Of a DNA stretch of 64,000 bases, positions 2,883-59,358 are shown piece by piece. Where the stretch lies: the NCBI GenBank assembly GCA_035328475.1, contig DAOLIP010000005.1, positions 9,774 through 73,773 of the forward strand. Direction: 5' to 3'. How positions within the stretch are numbered: the first letter of the stretch is position 1; each line of letters starts with the position of its first letter. Source of the stretch: Ferruginibacter sp. (GTDB taxonomy: Bacteria; Bacteroidota; Bacteroidia; Chitinophagales; Chitinophagaceae). Below the pieces are notes generated by a model, which saw only the letters and a list, made by a program, of their open reading frames with translations, was not told where the DNA came from and did no database searches. A program made the translations under genes and the position numbers.

Positions 2883-4154
2883 TTATTCTGCTATGATCTT
2901 CCTGATCCGGTGGTTGGCAAAATCAGCAACATATAGAAGTCCGTTTGTAAAGTCTCCGCAAAGTGCAATGGGGGTATTAAACTGTGCTGCTGATCCAACA
3001 CCTTCATTTAAACCCTGGCTGCTTCCTGCAATGGTGGTGACCACGCCGGCAGCTGTAATTTTCCGGATGCGGTGATTGAAGGCATCACATACATACAGGT
3101 TACCACTGGCATCTGCTGTGATGCCGGAAGGATAGTAAAAAGTAGCTGCAGTGCCTGTACCATCTGCCGATCCGGGTGTGCCTGCCTGCCCGGCTACTAC
3201 CGAACTAACATTGGCGGTACTGTACTTCATTACCTGGTTAGAACTGTATGTGGTATAATACAGGTTTCCGGCAGCATCTAAAGTCAATCCAAAAACAATT
3301 CCTGAATTAACAAGAGTTGTTACCACACCCGCAGGAGTTACTTTGCGTATCAGGCCATTTATATAGTCGGCTACATAAATATTTCCTGCTGCATCGGCTG
3401 CTACGCCTAATGGTTCGTTGAACTGTGCAGCAGATCCGGTACCGTTCACACTTCCCGGGTTACCATTGCCAGCCAGGGTGCTAACTACCCCGGCAGGCGT
3501 GATCTTTCTGATAGCATGATTCATGCGGTCGCCTACATACAGGTTACCCGATCCGTCGATGGTTATGCAATAAGGCTGGTTGAACTGAGCTGCCGTACCT
3601 GTTCCGTTTGTAAAACCCATGGTACTTCCGGCAAAGCTGGTTACTATACCAGCTGCTGTAATTTTCCGGATGCGATGGTTGTCCCGGTCGCATACAAACA
3701 TATTTCCTGCTGCATCTTTTACAATGCCGGAAGGAATGTTGAACTGCGCTGCTGATCCTGTTCCATCAGCAAAGCCCTGGCTGCTTCCGGCAAAGCTGGT
3801 TACGGTTCCGTTTCCCAGGTAGGTAAATACCGGGCCGCTTACCTGCGTACTGTTCTTCTCAACTTTTACGGCACCGGTAGAAGCGCCCGAAGGAACAAGG
3901 GCTGTGATCTGGGTATCGGTGGCTGTTTGCACGGTACCCTGTACGCCGTTAAAATATACTTTAAGTGCGCTGCTGTTTGTTCCGAAGTTGGTACCGGTAA
4001 TGGTTACCACGGTGTTTTTTGGTCCGCTGGCCGGGTTGATGGCGGTTACCGTATGTGCCGGAGCCGGTGGAGAAACAGTGTCATTATCTTTTTTACAGGA
4101 AGAAAAGATAATGCTGCTGCATAGTGCAGCCGTTACGAATTGTTTGAATTTCAT
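2883..4154 (-). CDS. IPT/TIG plus NHL-repeat beta-propeller lipoprotein
   Basis: Lipobox FSSC; TIG domain (AINPASGPKNTVVTITGTNFG); repeated AQFNxPxGxxxDxxGNxYVxDxxNHRIRKIT units. Confidence 0.9.
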   Translation of the reverse strand: MKFKQFVTAALCSSIIFSSCKKDNDTVSPPAPAHTVTAINPASGPKNTVVTITGTNFGTNSSALKVYFNGVQGTVQTATDTQITALVPSGASTGAVKVEKNSTQVSGPVFTYLGNGTVTSFAGSSQGFADGTGSAAQFNIPSGIVKDAAGNMFVCDRDNHRIRKITAAGIVTSFAGSTMGFTNGTGTAAQFNQPYCITIDGSGNLYVGDRMNHAIRKITPAGVVSTLAGNGNPGSVNGTGSAAQFNEPLGVAADAAGNIYVADYINGLIRKVTPAGVVTTLVNSGIVFGLTLDAAGNLYYTTYSSNQVMKYSTANVSSVVAGQAGTPGSADGTGTAATFYYPSGITADASGNLYVCDAFNHRIRKITAAGVVTTIAGSSQGLNEGVGSAAQFNTPIALCGDFTNGLLYVADFANHRIRKIIAE

Positions 4155-7616: not shown

Positions 7617-8297
7617 TTAAACCCAGTTATTCTTGTGGGCAAGACTGATGACCTGGGCCTTGCTGTTCACGTGCAGTTTCTGGTAAATATTGGCAATATG
7701 TTTCCGTACGGTGAGTACGCTGATATCAAGTATGGATGCAATCCGTTTTGCATCGTGGCCATTGATGGTATGAATTAATATTTCTTTTTCTCTTTCGCTC
7801 ACCAATGCATCAAGCAAATGAGGTTCGGTGGCTTTTGTTCCGGTTTGAAGCTGCGCTTTACCCAGCATTTCAAACGCTTTCCGGGCAATGGCAGCGCTCA
7901 TCGGGGCGCCACCGCTTTCTACCACGTTGGTAATGGCATTGTGCAGGGCAACGGCACTTTCATCTTTAAGTAAATAACCATGAGCCCCCGCTTTTATGGC
8001 TTCAAAGATCTTATCATCATCATCAAAAACGGTCAGTACAATAAAAAAGATATCCGGGTACATTAAGCGGGCCAGGCTGATCGTTTGCACCCCGTCCATC
8101 TCCGGCATTTCCAGGTCCATGAAAATAACTTGAGGTACTTTATCTACCGGCAGGCCCTTTAGCTGTTCCAGGCAATCGTTTCCGTTTACAGCCATGAAGC
8201 AGAAATTCAGGTCTTCGAACTGTTTTATCTTATCTGCAATGCTGCTGCGGTTCACCGCTTTGTCATCAACCAGTCCTATTCGTAAAGAGGTATTCAT
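7617..8297 (-). CDS. NarL/LuxR-family response regulator
   Basis: Receiver (LVDD, FMDLEMPEMDG, GYLLK) plus LuxR HTH (VSEREKEIL...ISVLTVRKHIANIYQKLHV). Confidence 0.95.
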   Translation of the reverse strand: MNTSLRIGLVDDKAVNRSSIADKIKQFEDLNFCFMAVNGNDCLEQLKGLPVDKVPQVIFMDLEMPEMDGVQTISLARLMYPDIFFIVLTVFDDDDKIFEAIKAGAHGYLLKDESAVALHNAITNVVESGGAPMSAAIARKAFEMLGKAQLQTGTKATEPHLLDALVSEREKEILIHTINGHDAKRIASILDISVLTVRKHIANIYQKLHVNSKAQVISLAHKNNWV

Positions 8298-8346: not shown

Positions 8347-10269
8347 TCAATTTATAGTAGTATTTGTTAAAAGCAATACAGTGCCTTCATTGGTGGCGGA
8401 TGTTATGGATAGCTGCATACCAATTTCCCTGGCTCTTGCCTGCATATTCCTCAGGCCATTGCCATTGAATGTATAGGTATTTTGTATTCCTTTGCCATCG
8501 TCGGAAATCTTTACCCGGAACGTTTCATCGCTGCCTATATAAACACTGATATTAGAAGCCTGGCTGTGTTTTAGTGCATTGTGCAGCGCCTCCTGCACGA
8601 TCCTGAAAATATTCAGGGCATTTTGTGAATTTATTCGAACATCGTTGTTTATCTCTTCGTGGATATGGAACTGGATGTTATTATAACTGGGCCGTAGCTT
8701 GTTGATGTAGTTCTTTATCCGGTCGCCAATACCGGTAATGGTAATATTGTCTTTATTGAGAACCCAGATCGTATCCCTTAAGGAATTAATTATTTCCTGC
8801 GAATGCTGTTGCAGGTTCTGAAGGGAAATTTTGTTTTTTTCAAGCCCGTTATCGGTGATCTTTTCCACATCGGCACGTATGGCGGATGCATAGGCGCCGA
8901 TGTTATCGTGCAGGTCGGCAGCGATCCGTTTGCGTTCCTGTTCTTCCGCATCAATAATAGATTGGGCGGCAATCCGTTTTTCTTCCTGTAAAGCCAGTTG
9001 CATTTTGATATTCTGTTTGCGCCGGTAATTTTTGAACGACAGCCAGATAATAACAGCAACCATTGCTGCAAAGAGTGCAGAGCCAAACAGCCAGTAATTT
9101 TTTACCGTAAGGTTTAATTTTTGTTCGGCAATGGTTCTTTCTTTTTTCATCACATCGCTGCCTGCCTGCATATCGGCCAAAAGCCTGGCAGAGTTGATAT
9201 TGTTGAATGAATCCTTTAATGCGATGATATGCTCGAGGGTTTTGCCGTATTCGATCATATTACCCGCTGCTTTATAGTTTTCTGCCAGTGAATGATAGAT
9301 CATGAGAAGCTGGGAAGATAAGCCGCTTTTTTTTGCAAGGGCGATCCCTTCCTTGCACAGCTCAATACCTTTTTCAGTCTGGTTATTATTCGCATAATAA
9401 CTGGCCAGGCTGCTCATGTCAAATACCGTATAAAACGGGTCGTTTAATTTTTTTCGTATCGTTACAACTTCATTGAGAGGTATTTCAGCAAGTTTCGACT
9501 GTTTACTGTCAATAAGTATTTTGGCCTTCATGCTGAGGGCGGTGGCAAGCCATATCAGGTTGTCATTTTCACGGGCATCTTTTATAGCAATATCTATATA
9601 GACTTTTGCCGAGTCTGGCTTTCCCAGGGCATTAAGTGTGGTTGCCATGTTGCTGTACAGTGCACCATAATTTTTATAAAATCTTTGATTCGGGGATGTA
9701 TACAATGCTTTTTGCAGCCATTTTAGCGCTTCTCCATATTGCTCCATTTCCATCTGTACCCAGCCAATACCCGTTTTGGCCTGGATCTGTATCAGGGTAT
9801 CTTTCATTATTTCGGCTGTCTCCAGCACCTTAAATAACTGTGTAAGTGCCTGGGTATACCGGTTAGCCTTGTCAAAAACTTTTGCTTTAAAGAATAAAAG
9901 TTCCAGGTAAAAACTTTGCTGCTGTTTATCATTCTTAATGGCCTGGATCTGCTGGTCGGCAATATACAGGGCGCTGTCAATAAAATTTATGCGCACATAA
10001 TACACGGCTCGTATAAACGCAGCCCTCGCTGCATCCACGTTGTTTTTTGTTTTGGCAGCAATGTTTTCAGCCATTACAACATAAGGCAGCAGCGTATCGG
10101 GGTGATTGCCCTGTTCAGATAATTTGATGATTGCAGCAAGTTTTTCTTTTTCAGTTACGGCCATTTCAATACGCCTGCGCAAACTATCAATAACTTTTGT
10201 CTGAGAAAAAGCGGGAGTGGCTGATGAAACGGAAAGGCAAAGGGATAATATAATGCAGCACTTTTTCAT
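8347..10269 (-). CDS. TPR-containing HisKA_3 sensor histidine kinase
   Basis: Signal peptide, TPRs, TM helix, ERKRIAADLHDNIG, QEALHNALKH, DDGKG, GNGLRNM. Confidence 0.93.
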   Translation of the reverse strand: MKKCCIILSLCLSVSSATPAFSQTKVIDSLRRRIEMAVTEKEKLAAIIKLSEQGNHPDTLLPYVVMAENIAAKTKNNVDAARAAFIRAVYYVRINFIDSALYIADQQIQAIKNDKQQQSFYLELLFFKAKVFDKANRYTQALTQLFKVLETAEIMKDTLIQIQAKTGIGWVQMEMEQYGEALKWLQKALYTSPNQRFYKNYGALYSNMATTLNALGKPDSAKVYIDIAIKDARENDNLIWLATALSMKAKILIDSKQSKLAEIPLNEVVTIRKKLNDPFYTVFDMSSLASYYANNNQTEKGIELCKEGIALAKKSGLSSQLLMIYHSLAENYKAAGNMIEYGKTLEHIIALKDSFNNINSARLLADMQAGSDVMKKERTIAEQKLNLTVKNYWLFGSALFAAMVAVIIWLSFKNYRRKQNIKMQLALQEEKRIAAQSIIDAEEQERKRIAADLHDNIGAYASAIRADVEKITDNGLEKNKISLQNLQQHSQEIINSLRDTIWVLNKDNITITGIGDRIKNYINKLRPSYNNIQFHIHEEINNDVRINSQNALNIFRIVQEALHNALKHSQASNISVYIGSDETFRVKISDDGKGIQNTYTFNGNGLRNMQARAREIGMQLSITSATNEGTVLLLTNTTIN

Positions 10270-10457: not shown

Positions 10458-13400
10458 ATGAAAAGTTTACTACTACTGATTACCGGGATCTTCATTTTAC
10501 CAGGCATCGCCTGCCAACTGCAGGCACAGCGTAAGCTACCGGTGCTGATCAACAGAAATACAATCCAGGTACCGGCAAACAAAGGAACGCAGCAAACTTC
10601 CGGTATCCTTACTTCCTGTACGCAGGATACGATACTGATCACCAGCCAGGCCCAGATCGATAATTTCGCCGTTGATTATCCCACCTGTTCAAATCCGAAA
10701 TATTTAATTATTGACGGGGCGGGGGCAAGCCCGGCCATTACTAACCTGAATGGTTTTCTTGCGAGCAGCCTGGGTGAGGTTCAGAAGAAACTTAAGATAG
10801 TAAACACATCGCTCACCAGCATGGGCGGGTTGAATAACCTGTATTTAATAGACACACTGGACCTGCAGCATAATCCATTACTGACCACGCTTGGTCTATT
10901 CAATCTTGATTCCCTTGGGGCCATCAATTTTATTGACCTGCCGGTATTCACCGATATGGATGGTTTGTGCGATGATTTCATAAATATCCGCAATGTAAAT
11001 ATTGATTCTACTGCGCTCACCACGTTAAACGGGTTGAGCAATATCGAGAACATTACAGACGGCCTGTTCATAGCACATACACCGCTTACCAGTTTAAGCG
11101 GTATGGCAAGTCTTACCAGCATGGGCGGCTGGATCAATGTGACGGATGACCCAGCCCTTACCTCCATAGGTCTACATAATCTTACAAGATGCAATGGTTT
11201 TCTTTTTTGGGGCCTGCCCAACCTAACCAGCCTGGAAGATATAAGTCACCATCTTGTTAATACCAGTATCAGCACTTTTTGGATGATCCAGACCGGTATC
11301 ACGGACCTGTCGGGTCTCGACAGCCTTACCTCGGTTCCGAATTTTTATTTATGGAGTAACCCAAACCTGGTATCTGCACATGGCCTTGAAAAAGTACAGG
11401 GAAATGTGGCGGAGGGGATATCCATTCATGATAATCCGTTGCTGACAGATATTACGGCGTTAAGCGGAATCACCGCCGTGAGTAACGGTACACTTGAAAT
11501 CGACAGCAATCCATTACTGACCAGCCTTACGGGGCTGGGTAACATCACAGATATAGGTAAGGGACTTTGGATCGTGAATAACCCGGGGCTTACTACCCTG
11601 GCCGGTCTGGATAGTACGCTTGTTGTTCATAATATAGATGACCAGAAGATGAAGATCAATGATAATTCACAGTTGGCGGTTTGTAATTTTCCCCCTGTTT
11701 GTAATTACATTGCTTCGGGTGAATCAATTGAGATAAACAACAATGCGCCGGGCTGCGCCAGTTTAGCGGAAGTAACCACTGCCTGCAACCTCAACTGCAG
11801 CAGTGGTGATGAGAAAACCTGGAACGGACAAAACAGTAACGATTGGAATGACCCGGATAACTGGACCCCGGCAGGCGTACCGGCTCTATGCACCAAAGTT
11901 ATTATCCCTTCTTATGACGATGTACCCAATACCCCGCTTGCAGCCGGTAATATTTCCATTGGCGGATTGGTAATGGAATCCGGAGCAGTACTGAACATGG
12001 ATGGGTATGAGCTAACCGTAACCAAGACATTTAACTTACATAATTCCACTATTTTTTCCGGCAGCAGTATTACGGCAACAAGGATTTTTGAACCCGTTGT
12101 AAACAGCAGTTACCTCGAAGGCAATTTTACCTGTGAAGATTACGGTGGCCATGCTGAATTCTTTTATAATACTTTTTATGGCAATACGGTTTTAAGTGAC
12201 AGTACCGGCCGCACCGAAAGCAGCAGCACTTCTTTCAACACGTTCCACGGAAATTTAACTTTCATCAACAACAGTGATTATGGTAATAATTATTTAAGCA
12301 ATGCCTCGCCATTGTTCGATTATATAGAGGGCGATCTGCTCATAACCAATAATTCTGCTGCAGATATTTCCGTAGGTCTCGGCGCCGGCCGGCCCCTTAA
12401 AGTACAGGGAAATTTTATTGTGAATGCAAGCAACGGTCTTGTTGATATCAATAACCTCACGTTTGTTGGAGGAACGTTTAATCCCCATACCACGCAACTC
12501 GGGAGCAATCCCATACGGATAAATAATTTATTCATGGAGGCCGGCGCTGAAACGAGGCTGGATCAAAGTATAGAAATAAATAACAGTCTGGTATTTGATA
12601 ACGGCAGCAATAAGATAAACACTACCTCTGCAAACCTGCTGATATTAAACAGCGGGACAACCGTTACCAGGGACCCTGCCAATAACCGCGGATTTGTTAA
12701 TGGCCCGATGAAAAAAAGGGGTAACCAGGCGTTTACATTCCCGGTGGGAAAATATGAGTTCCAGTATGGGGGAGATAATTACGGGCCAATAAGCATTTCT
12801 GCACCGGCAAATGCCACGGATGAATTTACGGCAGAATACTTTCACCATAATCCTGGGGATGACGGTTACGATACATCTTTATATACTCCCGGCTTTGGCG
12901 GTATTTCCGGAAAAGAATACTGGAAGCTCACAAGGGATAATGGAAATGCCGAAGTGGAAGTAACGCTGAGTTACGACAGTGCAAGAAGCGGAATTGCCTA
13001 CCTGTTCAACGATATGCAGGTTGCCGGCTGGAACGGAAGTTTATGGAGGAGCTGGGGAACCGGTGGATTCACAGGCACCATTGCATCTGGAACAGTGATC
13101 TCTGATAACCCGCTTACCGACTATGGGCCATTAACTCTTTCATTCAAACCGGTGCGTATACCGGTCATTACCTTGGGTGAAGTGGATTCGATCCCTTGCG
13201 CAGGTACTTATTTTAGCGTACCATTCAGCCTGGATACTGCTATGATCGCCGGAAATGTTTTTAAGGCAGAAATTTCTGATAGCCTTGGTGTTTTCAGTCC
13301 GGTATCTAATAGTGTTCTGGGAACCAAGGCCGGCATTACTTCCGATACCATCCAGGCTTATATGCCATTCACATTGAATTTTGGAAGTCATTATAAAATA

Positions 13401-16400
13401 AGAGTAACCGGCACATTGCCCAGGGATACCAGTGTGAATTCAAAAACGGTGATACCAGGCAGGGTGCCGCAGCAAACATTTAATATTATCGGAACCACCC
13501 CTGCCTGTATCGGGAATGGATTGCAGAAATACTATCCGAGTCTTCATGAACCCAACACGGTTTACACGTGGACGCTTTCAGGAGGAGGTACATTTACAAC
13601 CAACGGCGATACGGCTATTGTAAACTGGACAACAACCGGCACGTATAATCTCACCTGTAAAAGTTCCAATTATTGCGGAAACGGGCCGCAAAAGATTCTA
13701 TCGGTTGAAGTGAAGCCTGCAGCACCAACGGCAACAGCCACCATTTATAATACCGGAAGGTGGTTATTCTCTTCACAGGTTCCTTCTTTAGCCGGATACC
13801 AATGGTACCGCAATGGCATCATTATTTCCGGGGCGGTCAATTCATCTTATTATGCTTCTTTAGCCGGAATCTATACGGTTAAGTTTGAGAATTACTGTGG
13901 CGCAGGTCCGGCATCAAATACGATTTCGTTTGCCGCCAACTCCATTCCACAAACAATTAATTTCCCGGCCATACCCAATAAAACCTACGGGGATGCGCCG
14001 TTTGTTCCAAACGCCACGGCAACATCGGGTTTACCGGTTTCGCTTACTTTAATAAGCGGCCCGGCAACGATCAATCCGCAAACAAATCTTTTAACCATTA
14101 CAGGAACCGGGTTGGTTACCATCAGGGCAAATCAAATTGGTGACGAAGTGTATGATACTGCAGCACCGGTAACAAGAAGTTTTACCATAAATAAGGCAAC
14201 ACAGGTAATAACGTTTCCTGCAATTCCCGAACAGGATATCAGCAGTTCAACCGTTGCGTTACTGGCATCTTCCACATCGGCTTTACCGGTCACTTATACC
14301 ATTATCGCAGGACCGGCAACCGTTTCAGGAAATATCGTAACGTTTACCGCTTTAGGAACAGTAACCGTAAGGGCTTCGCAAAACGGGGATACGAACTATT
14401 TGCCTGCAACAGCAGTTGACCGAAGCTTCTGTATTCGGGTTGCTGACCTGGCCGGCATTTCAGGCTATACTAATTTATGCCCGGGTACGGCCACGTATAC
14501 TATAAACAATGTACCGGGTGCCACCTACCTGTGGCGAATTGCCGGGGGAGCCACGCTTCCTTCCGGTAGTAACAGCACAAATGTAACATGGACAATCCCC
14601 GGCACCTACTCACTCATTGTTTCGGCAAGCGGCCCCTGCGGAGCTGCAAGTAATAACGACACATTGGTTGTTACCGTGATCAGCAGCATACAACCCGATT
14701 CGGTGCAAAGCATGCTGCCTCCTAATGGCGCCATCAACCAGCAGTTGCCATTAACGCTCTCATGGGTGCCGGCTCATCCCGGCTCCTTTTATACTTTCGA
14801 TCTCTATTTGTGGCGGGCTGATCTGCCGCAGCCAGGCACTCCGTATGCGGCTAATTTAACTGCCATAAACTATACCCTTCCGGTAAACAGCGGGTTAACT
14901 ACAAACCAGCCATACAAATGGATGGTGGTTTCGCACAACGGTTCCTGTACGCAGATCAATACAGGGCCTGTTCAGCAATTTACTTTAATACCATTACCCG
15001 ACCTGGTGGTACAGAATGTGCAGGCACCCGCAACGGCTTTTTCCGGTCAGACCATTTCTATAAACTGGACGGTAAGAAATCCGGGTCCGGGCAAAACCAC
15101 CACCAATCAAAACTGGACGGATGGCGTATTCCTTACTTTTGATACACTTCCGAATTTTTCAATACCACCTCAAACAAACCCGGCTGCATGGGGGCAATTG
15201 GATTTTCCATCAAGACCACTGCTTATTGCTGCCAAGCCTAATGTAAGCGCCCTGGACAGTGGCCAGCAATACAGTAATTCTGTAAACTTTACTTTGCCTT
15301 TAAGTTACAGTTTGCCTTTGTATGCGTATGTAATTACAAATTACCCTTCCGGTAGTAATGCACCACAACAGGTTACTAAAGTGAATGATACGGCAAGGGC
15401 CCCGCAACCGATCGTTGTTAGTCTTTCGCCCACCCCGGATCTGCGGGTAGATACTGTATTTACACCAACCACCACTTTTTCCGGCAGCACTATTAATGTT
15501 ACTTATAAGGTAAAAAACCATGGAGTGCTTACACCGGCGGGAGCTACATGGACAGATAAAGTATATATATCCCAAAGCCCTTTGTTTAATATAAATACAG
15601 CAATTCCTGTAAAACTTCCTAAACCCAATGGAACCTATTATGCCAATGCCGTTGATGCCTTTGCAACCAATACCAGTCAATTACCTGCAGACAGCACATA
15701 CAGCAGGAGTATGCAGGTGGTGGTACCTAATTATATTTTTGGAACCTGGTTTATATATGTTTTCGCCAATACCGGCGATACCCTTTATGAAGGGGCATTG
15801 AACAACAACAATGTAAACCGAAGCCAGGTACAGGTGTTCCTTACACCCACCCCTCATTTAAAAGTGAGTTCACTCACATTACCGGCAACCACAGCAAGCA
15901 CCACCCAGCCCATTGGCGTAAACTGGAATATTACTAATACCGGGTTTAATGATAATATAGAAAAAAACAAGGGGCATTATTTTGTACAAAGCGGAACATG
16001 CGTAGTATCCAATACCGGTTTGCCCGGTATATTAATCACAGATAGCTTAGGATTTGGTTCCAGCTATTGGGCCGACCGGGTCTATTTAAGTACCGACGCA
16101 GGCGGACTGAACATTGCCAATGCTGTTTTGGTAAGCGAAACAATTCAGGGGGTGCCAAACTCAGGATCAAATTCGGGTGAGACTCTTCTCACATATCCCT
16201 GCCAGCCCGGCGGTACAAATCCGGGCCAGCTCAATGTGAATACCTTCAATGTAATTAAGCCGGGATCCAATCATCCCCAAACCGGCAACTTTACTGTTCC
16301 ATCCACCTTACCACAGGGCAGCTATTATGTGTATGTTCTGGCCAATGCTTCCAGGTCTGTGTTTGAATATCCCGGTACGCCCGAAACAAGAAGAAGTACA

Positions 16401-19349
16401 CTGCCCATTACTGTTCAGCGCCCCGATGCAACCGTATCAACTATTACGGTGCCTGCCAATAGTACGGGAGGACAAGCCCTTGCCATTAATTACAGTATTC
16501 TTAATAGCGGCCCCGGTACGGTGTTTAATCATGTGCGAAGGGATAAGATCTATGTAAGTGCGTCTCCGGTATTTAACGGCAGTGCACAATTAATAGATTC
16601 TGCGATTTTTACAGAAGACCTGCCTGTTGGAACTGCTGTATCGCACACCCTTAATTATACATTCCCGGTATCAACATCCGGCACCCGGTATTTTTATGTG
16701 CATACCAATTTTGACAGTGCGTTCAGGGAAAATAATGCAAATAATAATATCAGTATAGCTGCAGCCACCCTTGTTACACCCGCTGCACCATGCGACCTGG
16801 TTGTTTCAAATATTCAGATGGGCGATACGGTGTATGCCGTTTTTCCGTCAGGTATAAAATATACCGTGACTAATAACGGCACTGCCGCCGCTGCCGGCAC
16901 CTGGACGGACAGTATTTATATCAGTTGCAGCCCCACATTTAACCCGGCTACCAGCTATTATATTGCCAAAAGAAGCCATGGCGGAATAGTGTCTGCAGGA
17001 AGCGGCTATACCGATTCGTTCAATGTGAATATGCCGTTCGCCTTTTACATCAACAACTGTTTCCCGCAGATAAACAGCAACACGGCTTATTTCTTCATAA
17101 AAACAAATGCCGGCTATACGGTGTATGAAGGAAGCAATGGAAATAATAACCTGGCAGGAACAGGCGCCAGGGTTTTAATTAATCCATCTGTTGATCATAT
17201 GGTAACATCGGTAACCGGTCCGGATACAGCAACCGTTGCACGGCCATACCCGGCCGGCTGGACGGTAAAGAACATAGGGTATAATCCCGGTCCGGGTTAT
17301 TACAGCGGATGGTATGATGCCATTTACTTTTCTCCTGACTCTGTATTTAATAGTAATGCAGTACTTGCTTCGGGTTATTTTGAAACCACCCCGTTAAATA
17401 CGAACCAGGTTTACAACGAAACCAGGAATGCAATACCCCCTAATATACCCACCGGAGATTATTATGTATTTGCCAGAACAAATTACTATCCTCCTTATGG
17501 AATAGCACATGAAACAATAGTGAGCAATAATGGCAACCTGATACGTAACGGAGGCGGGGCAGCTAAAAAAATTCATGTGATACAACCGCTGCTACCCGAT
17601 CTTACAGACAGCATCATATCCGGCCCATCATTGATCGCTGTTGGCCAGCCAGTAACGATCGTACACAGGGTTACCAATAATGGATCCGGAATTACCTACC
17701 CGGCTAACTGGAGCGATGACCTGTGGCTATCCACCGATTTCTTTCCCGGTAATAACGGAAGCGATATCCTCCTGGCTGGCAGAAACCACGCAGGGGCACT
17801 GCAGCCCGGTCAGTGGTACACCGATACCGTTACAGCAACCATTCCTATGAATGTTGCCCCAGGGAATTATATTTTAATAAGCCGGGTAAATGCAACGAAT
17901 AATCTATTTGAAAGCAGCAATACCAACAACCTCGCATTTAAATACGTAACCGTTTACAGCCCTGCGCCTGCTGACCTGGTTGTTGAAAATATATTGAAAC
18001 CCGATTCGGTCTTCCTGGGCTATACACTTGATACGGCTAAGTGGGTAGTAAAGAATATTTCTCCAAATGCAGCTATCGGGGCTTCTTCAGATGGCATTTA
18101 TTTATCAGCCAGCGGCCAACTGGATTCAACCGCTGTGTTACTGGGTATAAAAAACAAGATCATTAATATGGGGCCTTTTGCCATGGATACCATCAGCATG
18201 TCGCCACTGGTTACCAATGTAACCGAAGGGAATTACCATGTAATTGTGAAAACAGACCTGCTGAATAATATAGTGGAGAGCAATAAGGACAACAATACCG
18301 GGGTAGCAACCACACCGATTTATGTAAAAGTAAAAGAATTGCCGCTTGCTGTTCTTACTCCGAATACACTTCATACCATCAGCCGGTTTTATAAACTGGT
18401 GATACCCGATTCGCTCAGCGGTGCCACAATCCAGGTAATACTTAAATCAGGCGATTCGCTCACCATGAAGAACCAGATGTTTATTGGTAAAGGATATATT
18501 CCATCGCCTGCGCATTTTGATTATACGTACAGTACACCTAATTACGGCAACCAGGAAATTGTGATGGCATCTGTTACAACCGGAGTGTACTACATCACTA
18601 TCCGCTGTGCATCTGCAAACCCGGTGGTACAGAATATTACATTAAAAGCAGTAAAGCTGCCGTTTGCCATACTTAATGTGCATACTTCATCCGGGGGCAA
18701 CTCAGGCAATGTAACGGTTAAGGTCAGCGGATCTTTGTTTGTCAATAGTATGACAGCTGTGCTCAGCAAGCCAGGTACTACCATTAATGCATCGGCAGTT
18801 TATTTCATTAACAGCACAACAGTGTATGCCACATTTAACCTGCAGGGTAAGCCATTGGGTATTTACGATGTAACCTTAACAAAGCCAGATAGCAGCATGG
18901 CAACCCTGGTCAATGGATTTTCTGTGGTAACTCCTAATAACGGCGGACTCATTACGGGCGGCGGTGTAAATACGGGTCCGGGCAATGGAAATGCACCGGG
19001 TTGTGCACCGGGTGCCGCCAGCGGCTTAAACTCACAACTTGTTACAGAAATTGTAGCGCCGGAAAGGGTATTAATAGGCTGGCCATTTGTAATACAGATC
19101 AATTACAGCAATCCAACCAATGTGGATATTCCTGCACAGGCAAGAACCTTATACAGCGATCATAATGTATTAATGGCGCTTACACCGGCGGGGGTTGCCA
19201 CGGGTACCACTTCATTGTATTTAGAGTTGACGGAGCAGGATGGTCCTCCGGGCATCATACGTGCCGGTGGCTCGGGCTCTATACTGGTTTACTCTAAAAT
19301 GCACCTCAGTTTGCCAAGAGGCACCGTTATTCTGTTTAACCTGAAATAA
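10458..19349 (+). CDS. Giant 2963-aa surface/secreted protein: LRR/receptor-L-like N-terminus, Ig/PKD-like and MBG-like repeats, FN3-like domain, eight CARDB-like repeats, TIG-like C-terminal region; no recognisable T9SS CTD
   Basis: Signal peptide ending ACQLQA; LxxLxGLxxLxxI repeats; QTINFPAIP units; eight PDLxV...xxVxNxG units; ends ...RGTVILFNLK with no YPNP motif. Confidence 0.85.
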   Translation: MKSLLLLITGIFILPGIACQLQAQRKLPVLINRNTIQVPANKGTQQTSGILTSCTQDTILITSQAQIDNFAVDYPTCSNPKYLIIDGAGASPAITNLNGFLASSLGEVQKKLKIVNTSLTSMGGLNNLYLIDTLDLQHNPLLTTLGLFNLDSLGAINFIDLPVFTDMDGLCDDFINIRNVNIDSTALTTLNGLSNIENITDGLFIAHTPLTSLSGMASLTSMGGWINVTDDPALTSIGLHNLTRCNGFLFWGLPNLTSLEDISHHLVNTSISTFWMIQTGITDLSGLDSLTSVPNFYLWSNPNLVSAHGLEKVQGNVAEGISIHDNPLLTDITALSGITAVSNGTLEIDSNPLLTSLTGLGNITDIGKGLWIVNNPGLTTLAGLDSTLVVHNIDDQKMKINDNSQLAVCNFPPVCNYIASGESIEINNNAPGCASLAEVTTACNLNCSSGDEKTWNGQNSNDWNDPDNWTPAGVPALCTKVIIPSYDDVPNTPLAAGNISIGGLVMESGAVLNMDGYELTVTKTFNLHNSTIFSGSSITATRIFEPVVNSSYLEGNFTCEDYGGHAEFFYNTFYGNTVLSDSTGRTESSSTSFNTFHGNLTFINNSDYGNNYLSNASPLFDYIEGDLLITNNSAADISVGLGAGRPLKVQGNFIVNASNGLVDINNLTFVGGTFNPHTTQLGSNPIRINNLFMEAGAETRLDQSIEINNSLVFDNGSNKINTTSANLLILNSGTTVTRDPANNRGFVNGPMKKRGNQAFTFPVGKYEFQYGGDNYGPISISAPANATDEFTAEYFHHNPGDDGYDTSLYTPGFGGISGKEYWKLTRDNGNAEVEVTLSYDSARSGIAYLFNDMQVAGWNGSLWRSWGTGGFTGTIASGTVISDNPLTDYGPLTLSFKPVRIPVITLGEVDSIPCAGTYFSVPFSLDTAMIAGNVFKAEISDSLGVFSPVSNSVLGTKAGITSDTIQAYMPFTLNFGSHYKIRVTGTLPRDTSVNSKTVIPGRVPQQTFNIIGTTPACIGNGLQKYYPSLHEPNTVYTWTLSGGGTFTTNGDTAIVNWTTTGTYNLTCKSSNYCGNGPQKILSVEVKPAAPTATATIYNTGRWLFSSQVPSLAGYQWYRNGIIISGAVNSSYYASLAGIYTVKFENYCGAGPASNTISFAANSIPQTINFPAIPNKTYGDAPFVPNATATSGLPVSLTLISGPATINPQTNLLTITGTGLVTIRANQIGDEVYDTAAPVTRSFTINKATQVITFPAIPEQDISSSTVALLASSTSALPVTYTIIAGPATVSGNIVTFTALGTVTVRASQNGDTNYLPATAVDRSFCIRVADLAGISGYTNLCPGTATYTINNVPGATYLWRIAGGATLPSGSNSTNVTWTIPGTYSLIVSASGPCGAASNNDTLVVTVISSIQPDSVQSMLPPNGAINQQLPLTLSWVPAHPGSFYTFDLYLWRADLPQPGTPYAANLTAINYTLPVNSGLTTNQPYKWMVVSHNGSCTQINTGPVQQFTLIPLPDLVVQNVQAPATAFSGQTISINWTVRNPGPGKTTTNQNWTDGVFLTFDTLPNFSIPPQTNPAAWGQLDFPSRPLLIAAKPNVSALDSGQQYSNSVNFTLPLSYSLPLYAYVITNYPSGSNAPQQVTKVNDTARAPQPIVVSLSPTPDLRVDTVFTPTTTFSGSTINVTYKVKNHGVLTPAGATWTDKVYISQSPLFNINTAIPVKLPKPNGTYYANAVDAFATNTSQLPADSTYSRSMQVVVPNYIFGTWFIYVFANTGDTLYEGALNNNNVNRSQVQVFLTPTPHLKVSSLTLPATTASTTQPIGVNWNITNTGFNDNIEKNKGHYFVQSGTCVVSNTGLPGILITDSLGFGSSYWADRVYLSTDAGGLNIANAVLVSETIQGVPNSGSNSGETLLTYPCQPGGTNPGQLNVNTFNVIKPGSNHPQTGNFTVPSTLPQGSYYVYVLANASRSVFEYPGTPETRRSTLPITVQRPDATVSTITVPANSTGGQALAINYSILNSGPGTVFNHVRRDKIYVSASPVFNGSAQLIDSAIFTEDLPVGTAVSHTLNYTFPVSTSGTRYFYVHTNFDSAFRENNANNNISIAAATLVTPAAPCDLVVSNIQMGDTVYAVFPSGIKYTVTNNGTAAAAGTWTDSIYISCSPTFNPATSYYIAKRSHGGIVSAGSGYTDSFNVNMPFAFYINNCFPQINSNTAYFFIKTNAGYTVYEGSNGNNNLAGTGARVLINPSVDHMVTSVTGPDTATVARPYPAGWTVKNIGYNPGPGYYSGWYDAIYFSPDSVFNSNAVLASGYFETTPLNTNQVYNETRNAIPPNIPTGDYYVFARTNYYPPYGIAHETIVSNNGNLIRNGGGAAKKIHVIQPLLPDLTDSIISGPSLIAVGQPVTIVHRVTNNGSGITYPANWSDDLWLSTDFFPGNNGSDILLAGRNHAGALQPGQWYTDTVTATIPMNVAPGNYILISRVNATNNLFESSNTNNLAFKYVTVYSPAPADLVVENILKPDSVFLGYTLDTAKWVVKNISPNAAIGASSDGIYLSASGQLDSTAVLLGIKNKIINMGPFAMDTISMSPLVTNVTEGNYHVIVKTDLLNNIVESNKDNNTGVATTPIYVKVKELPLAVLTPNTLHTISRFYKLVIPDSLSGATIQVILKSGDSLTMKNQMFIGKGYIPSPAHFDYTYSTPNYGNQEIVMASVTTGVYYITIRCASANPVVQNITLKAVKLPFAILNVHTSSGGNSGNVTVKVSGSLFVNSMTAVLSKPGTTINASAVYFINSTTVYATFNLQGKPLGIYDVTLTKPDSSMATLVNGFSVVTPNNGGLITGGGVNTGPGNGNAPGCAPGAASGLNSQLVTEIVAPERVLIGWPFVIQINYSNPTNVDIPAQARTLYSDHNVLMALTPAGVATGTTSLYLELTEQDGPPGIIRAGGSGSILVYSKMHLSLPRGTVILFNLK

Positions 19350-19377
19350 AAATAGTTGACAATAAAAGATATAACAC

Positions 19378-58092: not shown

Positions 58093-59358
58093 ATGAAAAG
58101 AATTCTGCTTACGCCTGTTATTGTATTAAGTGTATTTTTTGCCGTTGCGCAGCCTACAACCACCGGTTTAATCGGTTACTGGCCTTTTAGCGGGAACTAC
58201 ACAAACGCCGGACCTGCTGCTGCAACGGCAAGTGGAGTAAATACCAGTTTTACAACAGGCTATAACAATGCTCCAAATACGGCTGTTCAATTCCAGGGGA
58301 ATGTGAATTCGTATATCGATTTTATTGATAACGGAAATTTTGACTTCACCGGCACCAATAATTTCACCGTGGGATTCAGTTTTTATTTTAACGGAAGCAC
58401 CACATCCGGACTGGTTGATAATTGCCTTAATTATGGTGGTTGGGGAGTTTGGCTATGGTCTACAGTAGCAGGAACCTGGAACCTGCAATTCAATTATAAA
58501 AATAATTCTGTGGGGAGTGCTGCAGCAACAAATTTCTCCATTGGCGCATGGCACCATGCAACAGCAGTAAGGAATAACGGTACTATATCACTATATATAG
58601 ACGGTATTTTCCGGCTTTCTGCCACAGAAGGCACACAAACACCATCTTACCCCCTTACGATGCAGGCGGGGGCAATGTGTTATGGGGGCTTTAGCCCGCC
58701 GAGGTATAATCCCTTTGGAGGTAAAATTGATGAACTGAGAATCTACAACCGGGCCCTTACTGCTGCAGAAATAGGCGGGCTGAGCGGCGGAGCACTGCCG
58801 GTGAAACTAACTTCCTTTACCGCTTCAAATAAGAACAACAATGTTACTCTAAAATGGCAAACACAATACGAACAGAACAGCAGTCATTATAATATACAGC
58901 GCAGCACAGATGGCGTGAACTTTACCAACGAAGCAAGGGTAACAGCCGCCGGAAACTCAAACCTGCCGCTTAATTATTCGCATAACGATCTGCTGCCTGC
59001 ATCCATTCAGTCTAAGAAAGCTGTTTTTTACCGGCTTCAATCGGTTGATAAAGACGGAAAGTTTGCGTACAGCCAGGTAGTGATGCTGCGCCTGGATATA
59101 AAAGAAATGGAACTGCTGGTTTCTCCCAACCCGGCCAAAGACATATTGCAGGTGCAAACAGGAAGTACCGTGGCTGGAGAAGCTGCCCTGGTTATTTCAG
59201 ATGCTGCAGGCCGGCAGTTGTATCAACGGAATATTGTATTGCAGCAGGGAACCAACAGCATACCCGTTAATATCTCTATGCTGGCCAAAGGAAACTACTT
59301 TGTCCGGATCATTGCGGGAACAGAATCATATACAAAGCAATTTGTAAAGATCGAGTGA
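58093..59358 (+). CDS. LamG/concanavalin-like protein with a T9SS C-terminal sorting domain
   Basis: Signal peptide, GLIGYWPFSGN, WHHATAVR, FGGKIDELRIYNRALT, LPVKLTSF, VSPNPAK...GNYFVRI...QFVK. Confidence 0.92.
   Translation: MKRILLTPVIVLSVFFAVAQPTTTGLIGYWPFSGNYTNAGPAAATASGVNTSFTTGYNNAPNTAVQFQGNVNSYIDFIDNGNFDFTGTNNFTVGFSFYFNGSTTSGLVDNCLNYGGWGVWLWSTVAGTWNLQFNYKNNSVGSAAATNFSIGAWHHATAVRNNGTISLYIDGIFRLSATEGTQTPSYPLTMQAGAMCYGGFSPPRYNPFGGKIDELRIYNRALTAAEIGGLSGGALPVKLTSFTASNKNNNVTLKWQTQYEQNSSHYNIQRSTDGVNFTNEARVTAAGNSNLPLNYSHNDLLPASIQSKKAVFYRLQSVDKDGKFAYSQVVMLRLDIKEMELLVSPNPAKDILQVQTGSTVAGEAALVISDAAGRQLYQRNIVLQQGTNSIPVNISMLAKGNYFVRIIAGTESYTKQFVKIE

Follow-up and report, generated by a model that had tools for sequence, protein, structure and literature searches.

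A giant fibre and a T9SS-tagged Rhs protein encoded side by side in Ferruginibacter: a possible multi-chain polymorphic-toxin system

We investigated a stretch of 64,000 nucleotides from Ferruginibacter sp. (contig DAOLIP010000005.1, positions 9,774 to 73,773; hereafter the window), in which two neighbouring genes encode a giant secreted protein and an Rhs protein carrying the C-terminal domain (CTD) of type IX secretion system (T9SS) substrates. With a probability of roughly 0.5, we read this locus as an extracellular multi-chain Rhs polymorphic-toxin system linked to the T9SS, in which the product of the first gene is a targeting fibre that docks on its tagged partner. Gene 1 (10458-19349) encodes a Sec-exported, surface-type protein of 2963 amino acids (aa; ~300 kDa), and gene 2 (19378-25227) encodes a 1949-aa protein with an Rhs/YD shell and a type A CTD; both genes, and all of their features described below, lie on the + strand. 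They are separated by a spacer of 28 nt (19350-19377) and stand in different frames, each with its own signal peptide, as had been described in an earlier reading made from the DNA letters (hereafter the sequence-only reading). The parts of this cassette are of known kinds. Their arrangement, in which only one chain is tagged, the giant partner is obligatory and the swappable cargo is internal, is new to the literature that we searched, where no description of the cassette was found.

The two genes are inherited as an adjacent pair

In a scan of genomes (one genome per species, 47 loci), a gene-2 homologue directly followed the gene-1 tail at 47 of 47 loci. A similar scan of metagenomes recovered a partner gene after the tail at 43 of 45 loci, the other two having less than 250 nt of sequence downstream. 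Co-occurrence of the genes in other genomes, on which the sequence-only reading depended, was thus borne out, at a level well above chance. Since the flanking genes vary between loci, we count this strict adjacency in favour of the pair working as one system. The last 584 residues of gene 1 have at least 120 homologues at 57-90% identity, and those that are named come from Chitinophagaceae or Ferruginibacter metagenome-assembled genomes (MAGs). Complete gene-1 homologues are all ~2650-3170 aa long, the few shorter listed entries being partial, and none of the 120 has a precomputed CTD domain or a length that would suit a fusion.

The split between the genes is not an artefact. Contigs from four runs, which belong to four different sludge studies, matched the junction (19000-19800) with 0 differences and 0 gaps. 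The identical junction in these independent assemblies and the recurring two-gene layout rule out an assembly error or a frameshift as its cause. Among the 29 loci with both genes intact, the spacing is 0-70 nt in 28, and the 1978 nt seen in the remaining one (L032) are due to a frameshifted gene 1. All 29 copies of gene 2 have a start and a signal peptide of their own, and the two genes share a frame with a single stop between them at 8 of these loci, about the one-third share that chance would give. Programmed read-through was rejected on both of these grounds. At one locus (L022, 12446-12451), the ATG of gene 2 abuts the TAA of gene 1 in the same frame, with no spacer. Homologues spanning both genes in a single open reading frame (ORF), which the sequence-only reading had envisaged, were found neither among the 120 close homologues, nor among the best 150 of the 348 tail-profile matches described below, nor at ~100 loci.

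No terminator-like site was found on the + strand of the spacer. One metagenomic run (X25) bears the label RNA-Seq and may contain DNA; a 175-nt contig assembled from it covers 19296-19470 without a mismatch, and the same run yielded short contigs across both genes within 17500-21500. The junction-spanning contig agrees, weakly, with co-transcription of the two genes.

Gene 1 ends in a tail without detectable similarity to T9SS CTDs

Gene 1 terminates in a beta-sandwich of ~100 aa (19056-19346; aa 2867-2963), and the protein ends with ...VILFNLK. In an AlphaFold model of the last 338 residues this tail is a sandwich of six or seven strands plus one helix, and when it was modelled alone the 10-residue blocks of the domain had predicted local distance difference test (pLDDT) values of 82-96. 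Its hallmark is the motif N.[GT]N.D.P ... E..GP[PE][GD]I[IL]R[AP]G, of which the stretch E..GPPGIIRAGG is invariant in the family of the window. The tail is preceded by a Gly-rich disordered linker (18939-19055; aa 2828-2866; pLDDT <50) holding a single Cys, Cys2849 (motif PGC[DA]PG), that is conserved in 97% of the gene-1 family.

The absence of a CTD from gene 1, and its presence on gene 2, had been central to the sequence-only reading, and both were upheld. No type A or type B CTD was detected in the whole of gene 1 with Por_Secre_tail, CHU_C, TIGR04183 or TIGR04131 at E<=0.1. Its end likewise had no CTD match in NCBIfam at E<=10 (last 119 and 299 aa), which includes empty scans with the TIGR04183 and TIGR04131 hidden Markov models (HMMs), or in Pfam at E<=1 (last 119 and 599 aa). 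When the tail profile was aligned with a profile of the partners' CTDs, hhalign returned a probability of 1.5%, and its sole match pairs INYSNPTN with IVYPNPT and represents a local form of the CARDB-like N.GN.D.P motif of distant tails. When the PDB was searched with the tail model by Foldseek, nothing matched at E<=1e-3 and the top 50 contained no T9SS CTD, the best matches being generic sandwiches such as CBM2, CBM3, macroglobulin domains and transglutaminase barrels. The tail region had no sequence match to a solved structure, and no PorP/SprF-like gene, as would be expected with a type B CTD cargo, was present in the window flanks scanned. We therefore rejected a cryptic CTD in gene 1, on the combined outcome of HMMs, hhalign and Foldseek searches with two models that found only generic beta-sandwiches. 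By sequence, the tail is a distinct family of its own.

We then looked at how this family is distributed. The tail profile (last 136 residues) gave 348 matches among 1.84 billion representative proteins. In the best 150 of them, the domain ends within ~25 residues of the C terminus, mostly within ~12, and the proteins reach 5828 aa. Their N-terminal parts are mutually unrelated and include beta-helix/NosD, LamG, MopE and NIDO types. In 50 aligned tails, N..N.D.P and E..GP..I.R.G show no or almost no variation, and 8 of 9 distant tails retain the linker Cys, the linker of L104 having none. The gene that follows the tail-bearing giant at these nine distant loci encodes a DUF6531-Rhs protein in eight cases and an M4 metalloprotease fused to DUF7619 in one (L104). 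By eye, the L104 partner ends in what looks like a type A CTD (...NQPNPF...); PF18962 was not among its Pfam matches at E<=0.05, and its ORF is cut by the contig end.

These data bear on the best-placed alternative, namely that the tail is a new autonomous signal for export across, or anchoring in, the outer membrane, whether as a T9SS CTD of a third kind or as a signal belonging to some other pathway, and that the two proteins cross independently and cooperate later on or are just co-expressed. We hold this to be unlikely, if still the strongest competitor. Like T9SS CTDs, the tail is a beta-sandwich of ~100 aa that always sits at the extreme C terminus behind a flexible linker, and atypical CTDs have reportedly been found on some T9SS substrates, such as ChiA of Flavobacterium johnsoniae. 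Moreover, some relatives have partners that also lack a recognisable CTD, so that another exporter of these proteins must exist. However, none of the three methods detected similarity to type A or type B CTDs. A general signal would also be expected on many cargos and in many contexts, whereas all of the ~100 loci have an Rhs or DUF7619 partner next to the tail, and this constant tie to one kind of neighbour argues against a general export signal. Docking of gene 1 onto its tagged partner through the tail is, in contrast, an interpretation of the gene content that we consider probable.

The partner is an Rhs container fused to a tagged module

Gene 2 begins with a signal peptide (19378-19479; aa 1-34) whose cleavage, read from the sequence, falls at ...TANA|QNINKPNK. 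The N terminus of the mature protein, AQ|N[IL]NxPN[KR]xGP, is kept in all 29 full-length homologues and is recognisable in distant Rhs partners. It is followed by DUF6531 (aa 48-121) and a YD/Rhs shell, identified with Pfam and NCBIfam (19480-22788). The RHS repeats were detected in 11 stretches by PF05593 (E 2.5e-106) and with 299 bits by TIGR01643, and sequence matches in the PDB were to the Rhs cocoons 7q97, 8h8a and 7pq5. The shell has three conserved Cys, C281 and the two of a GNCCG motif (328-332; window 20359-20373). GNCCG[FY]N with a Cys ~45-50 residues upstream (C~270) is kept in 7 of 7 Rhs partners aligned, those of the window and of six distant systems. As a lead only, this odd number of Cys in the N-terminal part would leave one as a candidate partner for the linker Cys of gene 1.

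The Rhs-associated core (22789-23043; aa 1138-1222; TIGR03696, 52 bits for a cut-off of 32.5) follows the shell and includes a putative autoproteolysis motif. R1182, D1195, D1218 and G1221-L1222 are invariant in 30 of 30 gene-2 sequences. Autoproteolysis of Rhs, Tc and teneurin-like proteins requires the equivalent Arg/Asp/Asp residues (PMC13018210). In most of the window's lineage both Pro of the DPxG motifs are replaced (DLIG ... DIFGL versus DPxGL), and the canonical DPxGL is kept in other relatives, fused as well as split. A link between this Pro loss and the fusion of Rhs to DUF7619 was rejected, since the fused proteins of L103 and L049 retain DPxG.

Beyond the cargo region treated below, gene 2 continues with a Cys/Pro-Lys linker and DUF7619 (23752-24387; aa 1459-1670), which contain the CP[QP]N Cys and the motif DPN[AE]IIGP; DUF7619 (PF24595) scored 48.6-55.6 bits for a cut-off of 27. 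This domain is reported to be a relative of the CLIPPER/DUF11 domains, for which intramolecular isopeptide bonds are predicted in fibrillar adhesins (bioRxiv 10.1101/2025.04.25.650565). An FN3-like domain and a further beta-sandwich follow (24388-25011; aa 1671-1878; conservation 55-67%), with weak PDB sequence matches to FN3 and a weak F5/8-type-C match in Pfam. The type A CTD and the stop codon occupy 25012-25227 (aa 1879-1949). Here both models scored above their cut-offs, TIGR04183 with 37.2-40.1 bits (cut-off 23) and PF18962 with 35.9 bits (cut-off 27).

In distant systems, some of which come from other Bacteroidota (one relative is named Lewinellaceae), these components are distributed differently over the genes. 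The distant pairs are often followed by a separate DUF7619 gene (five loci), by a small separate CTD protein or by both. Thus, L054 and L055 have the order giant, Rhs, DUF7619 protein; L056 has giant, Rhs (1512 aa) and a DUF7619-FN3-CTD protein (537 aa); and L057 has giant, Rhs, a DUF7619 protein without a CTD and a 383-aa FN3-CTD protein. L103 combines a giant and a fused Rhs-DUF7619 with a 352-aa CTD protein, an SMI1_KNR4 protein and a two-component system of the TPR-HisKA_3/GerE type, and the window itself has a giant and a fused Rhs-cargo-DUF7619-FN3-CTD protein. DUF7619 is therefore a separate secreted protein in L051, L054, L056 and L057 and is fused to Rhs in the window and in L103. The separate proteins have their own signal peptide and a Cys/Pro-rich N terminus followed by a DPNxIxGP motif, and this N terminus matches the CP[QP]N...DPNAIIGP segment of gene 2. 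This match indicates that gene 2 of the window is a natural fusion of two cassette components, so that, to judge from its make-up, the protein is a fusion of an Rhs container, a swappable cargo and a DUF7619-FN3-CTD module. In the wider cassette, as far as its gene content tells, two to four chains are secreted and just one of them bears the T9SS tag, which implies that the chains assemble.

The proposal of the sequence-only reading that the two proteins are halves of one giant polypeptide survives in part. Fusion and fission of Rhs and DUF7619 fit a single assembly, but the gene 1 tail has no similarity to the DPN/DUF7619 region of gene 2 that BLASTP could detect. The SMI1_KNR4 gene of L103 (21468-22736) lies after the CTD protein and was seen at no other locus; SMI1_KNR4 is a common immunity family in polymorphic toxin loci. 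PorP/SprF, CHU_C and Por_Secre_tail genes occur near some of the distant cassettes. Directly after the split cassette of L056 (23518-27056) lies a second, Tc-like gene with SpvB, TcdB_toxin_midN, FG-GAP and a YD shell.

A polymorphic cargo lies inside gene 2

Between the core and the DUF7619 module, gene 2 encodes a helical, Gly-rich region (GSGLGKLGFGL) that is polymorphic (23044-23751; aa 1223-1458). In 29 relatives, identity to gene 2 of the window is 55-77% over the shell and 55-78% from residue 1500 onward, and falls to 13-34% over residues 1225-1455. The region sorts into at least six unrelated sequence types. L030 and L044, for example, are 94% identical in the shell and 99% in the DUF7619 C-terminal module and 25% identical in the cargo, and many other pairs are alike in this respect. 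Such differences between near-identical flanks point to an exchange of cassettes like that of polymorphic toxins. In a departure from the sequence-only reading, what follows the Rhs core is by this pattern not just half of an adhesin; it holds a swapped polymorphic cargo, which speaks for a system of toxin type.

The cargo of the window is bracketed by Cys1225, just past the putative cleavage motif, and Cys1459 of CP[QP]N. Bracketing Cys are also found in the split systems L054, L056 and L057, and are missing from L051 and from the fused L103. No Pfam or PDB match was obtained for the window cargo, and no homologues of it were found outside this family, so that cargo sharing with other toxin systems was rejected. 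Some relatives have strongly hydrophobic, Gly/Ala-rich cargos. By analogy, hydrophobic or Gly-rich cargos recall pore-forming Rhs toxins such as Tse5 (PMC10684867). In gene 2 of the window the cargo is followed by ~490 conserved residues and is not the C-terminal end of the protein, as it is in the split relatives L054, L056 and L057.

A second alternative would make the pair a teneurin-type device for adhesion or kin recognition, with cargo and head as identity or binding determinants and nothing toxic being delivered. No immunity gene adjoins the pair in the window or in most relatives, the cargo lies within the chain, ahead of folded extracellular domains, and the second DPxGL motif lacks its Pro in the window's lineage, all of which would suit such a device. 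In teneurins, moreover, the C-terminal region lies outside the shell and autoproteolysis has been lost (PMC13018210; PMC5851990). Nevertheless, the catalytic Arg and both Asp are invariant here and relatives keep the canonical DPxGL, and the swapping of cargo between flanks that are 94-99% identical is a signature of polymorphic toxins. Some cargos are hydrophobic and Gly-rich as in Tse5 (PMC10684867), an M4 protease takes the place of Rhs in one relative and SMI1_KNR4 is present in another, and the defining NHL and FN-plug domains were not detected in a Pfam scan of gene 2. We thus regard a non-toxic recognition device as improbable.

Gene 1 carries a variable head on a conserved stalk

Gene 1 starts with MKSLLLLITGIFILPGIACQLQA followed by Q, in which a hydrophobic segment resembles a signal peptide (10458-10526; aa 1-23; predicted cleavage LQA|Q; read from the sequence). 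A lipoprotein anchor at a lipobox Cys, with an export signal, was rejected, because Cys19 is conserved in just 7% of homologues; P0030 has GIGSQLQAQ at that place.

The mature protein opens with a variable head (10527-13457; aa ~24-1000) made of Receptor-L/leucine-rich repeat (LRR)-like repeats (Pfam Recep_L_domain and LRR_EndoS). A conserved stalk follows (13458-18332; aa ~1001-2625), with Ig/PKD-like domains and an array of CARDB domains (CARDB, E 6e-28 in 6 stretches; PKD_6 at 1332-1400). The next two domains (18333-18938; aa 2626-2827) are beta-sandwiches in an AF2 model of the last 338 residues, which has an overall pLDDT of 83.6 and values of 70-96 for the 10-residue blocks over aa 2626-2827. 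The first had no Pfam family at E<=1, and the second is IPT/TIG-like (Foldseek matches to EBF3 IPT/TIG).

The head (residues 1-1000) is the least conserved part, with 31-49% identity compared to 55-75% for residues 1000-2963, and in other members of the family unrelated heads, made of EPNNSF or ELWxxDGT repeats, sit on the same stalk. A head that varies while the stalk is conserved fits a targeting role for gene 1, and the receptor-binding stalk of the sequence-only reading agrees with this; the head is presumed to be the end that recognises the target. Several genomes have, to judge by contig names, two cassettes with different heads (L003 and L033, L016 and L020, L036 and L045). The paired cassettes of one MAG may, for example, have a head of the EPNNSF-repeat type and one of the LRR type, and their cargos differ too. 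Near residue 450 of gene 1, a W.G..S..W...NW motif resembles the alternative gene-2 tail of L016-type relatives (see below).

A third explanation, that gene 1 is retained in the periplasm or at the outer membrane's inner side and helps the Rhs protein, as its scaffold or chaperone, to fold, to be loaded or to be exported, suits its having a Sec signal and no known outer-membrane targeting feature, but is most improbable given ~2900 residues of LRR, PKD, CARDB and TIG domains with an exchangeable, diversifying head, which are typical of extracellular fibres, and given relatives of up to 5828 aa, a poor fit to the periplasm.

Discussion

In the T9SS-linked toxin system that we favour, the tail of gene 1 would dock onto gene 2 in the oxidising periplasm or at the cell surface. 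A disulfide of the linker Cys, perhaps with the odd Cys of the GNCCG triad of the Rhs shell, could lock this docking. The CTD of the partner would then supply T9SS export, surface attachment or both for the whole assembly. The head of gene 1 would point outward and select the target. The Rhs cocoon would deliver its cargo, which in the window looks membrane-active, and the TPR-HisKA_3/GerE two-component system would govern expression.

The steps of this model are not equally likely. Whereas docking through the tail is the step that we would defend most readily, dependence of gene 1 on the CTD of its partner for export or anchoring is a tentative proposal with somewhat less than an even chance. 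The broader idea that the T9SS exports or anchors a CTD-less 300-kDa fibre in trans by way of a docking tail, as a Bacteroidota counterpart of A+BC toxin complexes, is more doubtful still. In that case the cassette would be a modular weapon acting on contact, whose targeting head and encapsulated toxin, each exchangeable, are borne by different chains.

Several observations weigh against the model. Our literature searches turned up no case of T9SS export in trans, or hitchhiking. Of 90 family members, about 13 (~14%) lack a recognisable CTD on either chain (L016, L017, L038, L019, L020, L026, L064, L071, L080, L082, L090 and L095, with L049 doubtful), which weakens a strict version in which the CTD acts in trans. 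Gene 2 of these relatives ends in another domain of ~190 aa (…MTWEGTxSNxWExPANWSCNSLPD…GFTLTIIK; the L016 copy is at 17126-17410), for which there was no NCBIfam match at E<=10 and after which no separate CTD gene follows. In L054 as well, no CTD gene was found within the contig sequence. No immunity-like gene comes after gene 2 of the window, and the toxicity of the cargo is deduced only from its position and polymorphism. Finally, the cargo should lie inside the shell and is yet continuous with an external C-terminal module, a topology for which the model does not account.

Rhs toxins are known to leave the cell by type VI secretion (T6SS), type VII secretion (T7SS), Tc complexes or Sec alone. 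The window cassette shares with the Rhs polymorphic toxins (RhsA, Tse5 and Tse15 of the T6SS; the Sec-dependent WapA) DUF6531, the YD shell, a core with Arg/Asp/Asp, a hypervariable recombining domain right after the cleavage motif, and the presence of several cassettes per genome. It differs from them in using Sec and a type A T9SS CTD instead of PAAR/VgrG or LXG, in its internal cargo, in having no adjacent immunity gene and in its obligatory giant partner upstream. Tc (ABC) complexes, in which a TcA injector is combined with a TcB-TcC Rhs cocoon, are similar in that a very large A gene precedes a cocoon with polymorphic cargo and that the A component presumably recognises the target. However, neither protein of the pair has a TcA-type helical channel, SpvB, TcdB_midN or a propeller (Pfam, E<=0.01); gene 1 consists of all-beta Ig-like repeats, the cocoon is a single Rhs of ~1200 aa, and the likeness is one of logic only.

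The T9SS adhesins SprB and RemA of Flavobacterium johnsoniae are, like gene 1, giant repetitive Sec-exported proteins of Bacteroidota; gene 2 has a type A CTD, and SprB-type operons encode accessory partners too. In contrast to these adhesins, gene 1 lacks a CTD of either type, A or B, the tag being carried by the other polypeptide, and the cassette contains no PorP/SprF-like gene. The DUF7619 domain of gene 2 is the point of contact with fibrillar adhesins that have CLIPPER/DUF7619 isopeptide domains. Bacterial teneurin-like proteins likewise have Sec signals, extensions of adhesin type and a YD shell that encloses a toxic, polymorphic C-terminal domain, but carry their adhesin domains on the same chain and not on a separate giant, and the FN-plug and NHL propeller were not detected in gene 2; a survey of teneurin-like proteins reported none in Bacteroidota (PMC13018210). 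Hitchhiker export, as of hydrogenase subunits by the twin-arginine translocation (Tat) system or in peroxisomal import, involves a subunit that has no signal of its own and passes, together with a partner that has one, through a translocon for folded proteins (PMC9251779). The present pair is similar to it in concept, and its case is drawn from gene content only.

A conserved T9SS-tagged Rhs protein whose giant partner is obligatory would open a further delivery route for Rhs proteins, in a phylum abundant in soil, sludge and guts. If export in trans were true, the cassette would be the clearest indication from genomes to date of multi-chain assemblies being handled by the T9SS, and predictions of T9SS secretomes would change, as the lack of a CTD would cease to be a reason for leaving a protein out. 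Several hundred uncharacterised giant proteins can be recognised by two simple sequence markers, the tail domain and the DUF7619 module. A cargo slot between conserved flanks inside the chain is itself an unusual layout for a polymorphic toxin.

Regulatory and neighbouring genes

A TPR-HisKA_3 histidine kinase (8347-10269, - strand) is divergent from gene 1 and is accompanied by a receiver-GerE/LuxR response regulator (7617-8297, - strand), both identified with Pfam. In tblastn searches, kinase and regulator were found just upstream in about 25-30 of 47 related loci, which are most of the loci that extend far enough, and a pair of the same type adjoins the distant cassette of L103. This divergent two-component system probably controls expression of the cassette. 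A gene for a LytTR-type DNA-binding protein of ~104-112 aa adjoins the cassette at three other loci (L016, 17463-17777; L038, 17647-17961; L105, 1693-2031); the LytTR assignment was read from the sequence, with a Pfam entry on record for L105.

Downstream of gene 2, genes for a PaaE-like reductase and a TetR regulator lie on the opposite strand. Elsewhere in the window, a 421-aa LamG (Laminin_G_3) protein (58093-59358) carries a type A T9SS CTD, indicating that the organism uses type A CTDs for other proteins. A 423-aa protein with TIG and NHL repeats (2883-4154, - strand; TEN_NHL match, E 2.9e-22) is encoded 6 kb from the cassette on the other strand; NHL propellers accompany YD shells in teneurin-like proteins.

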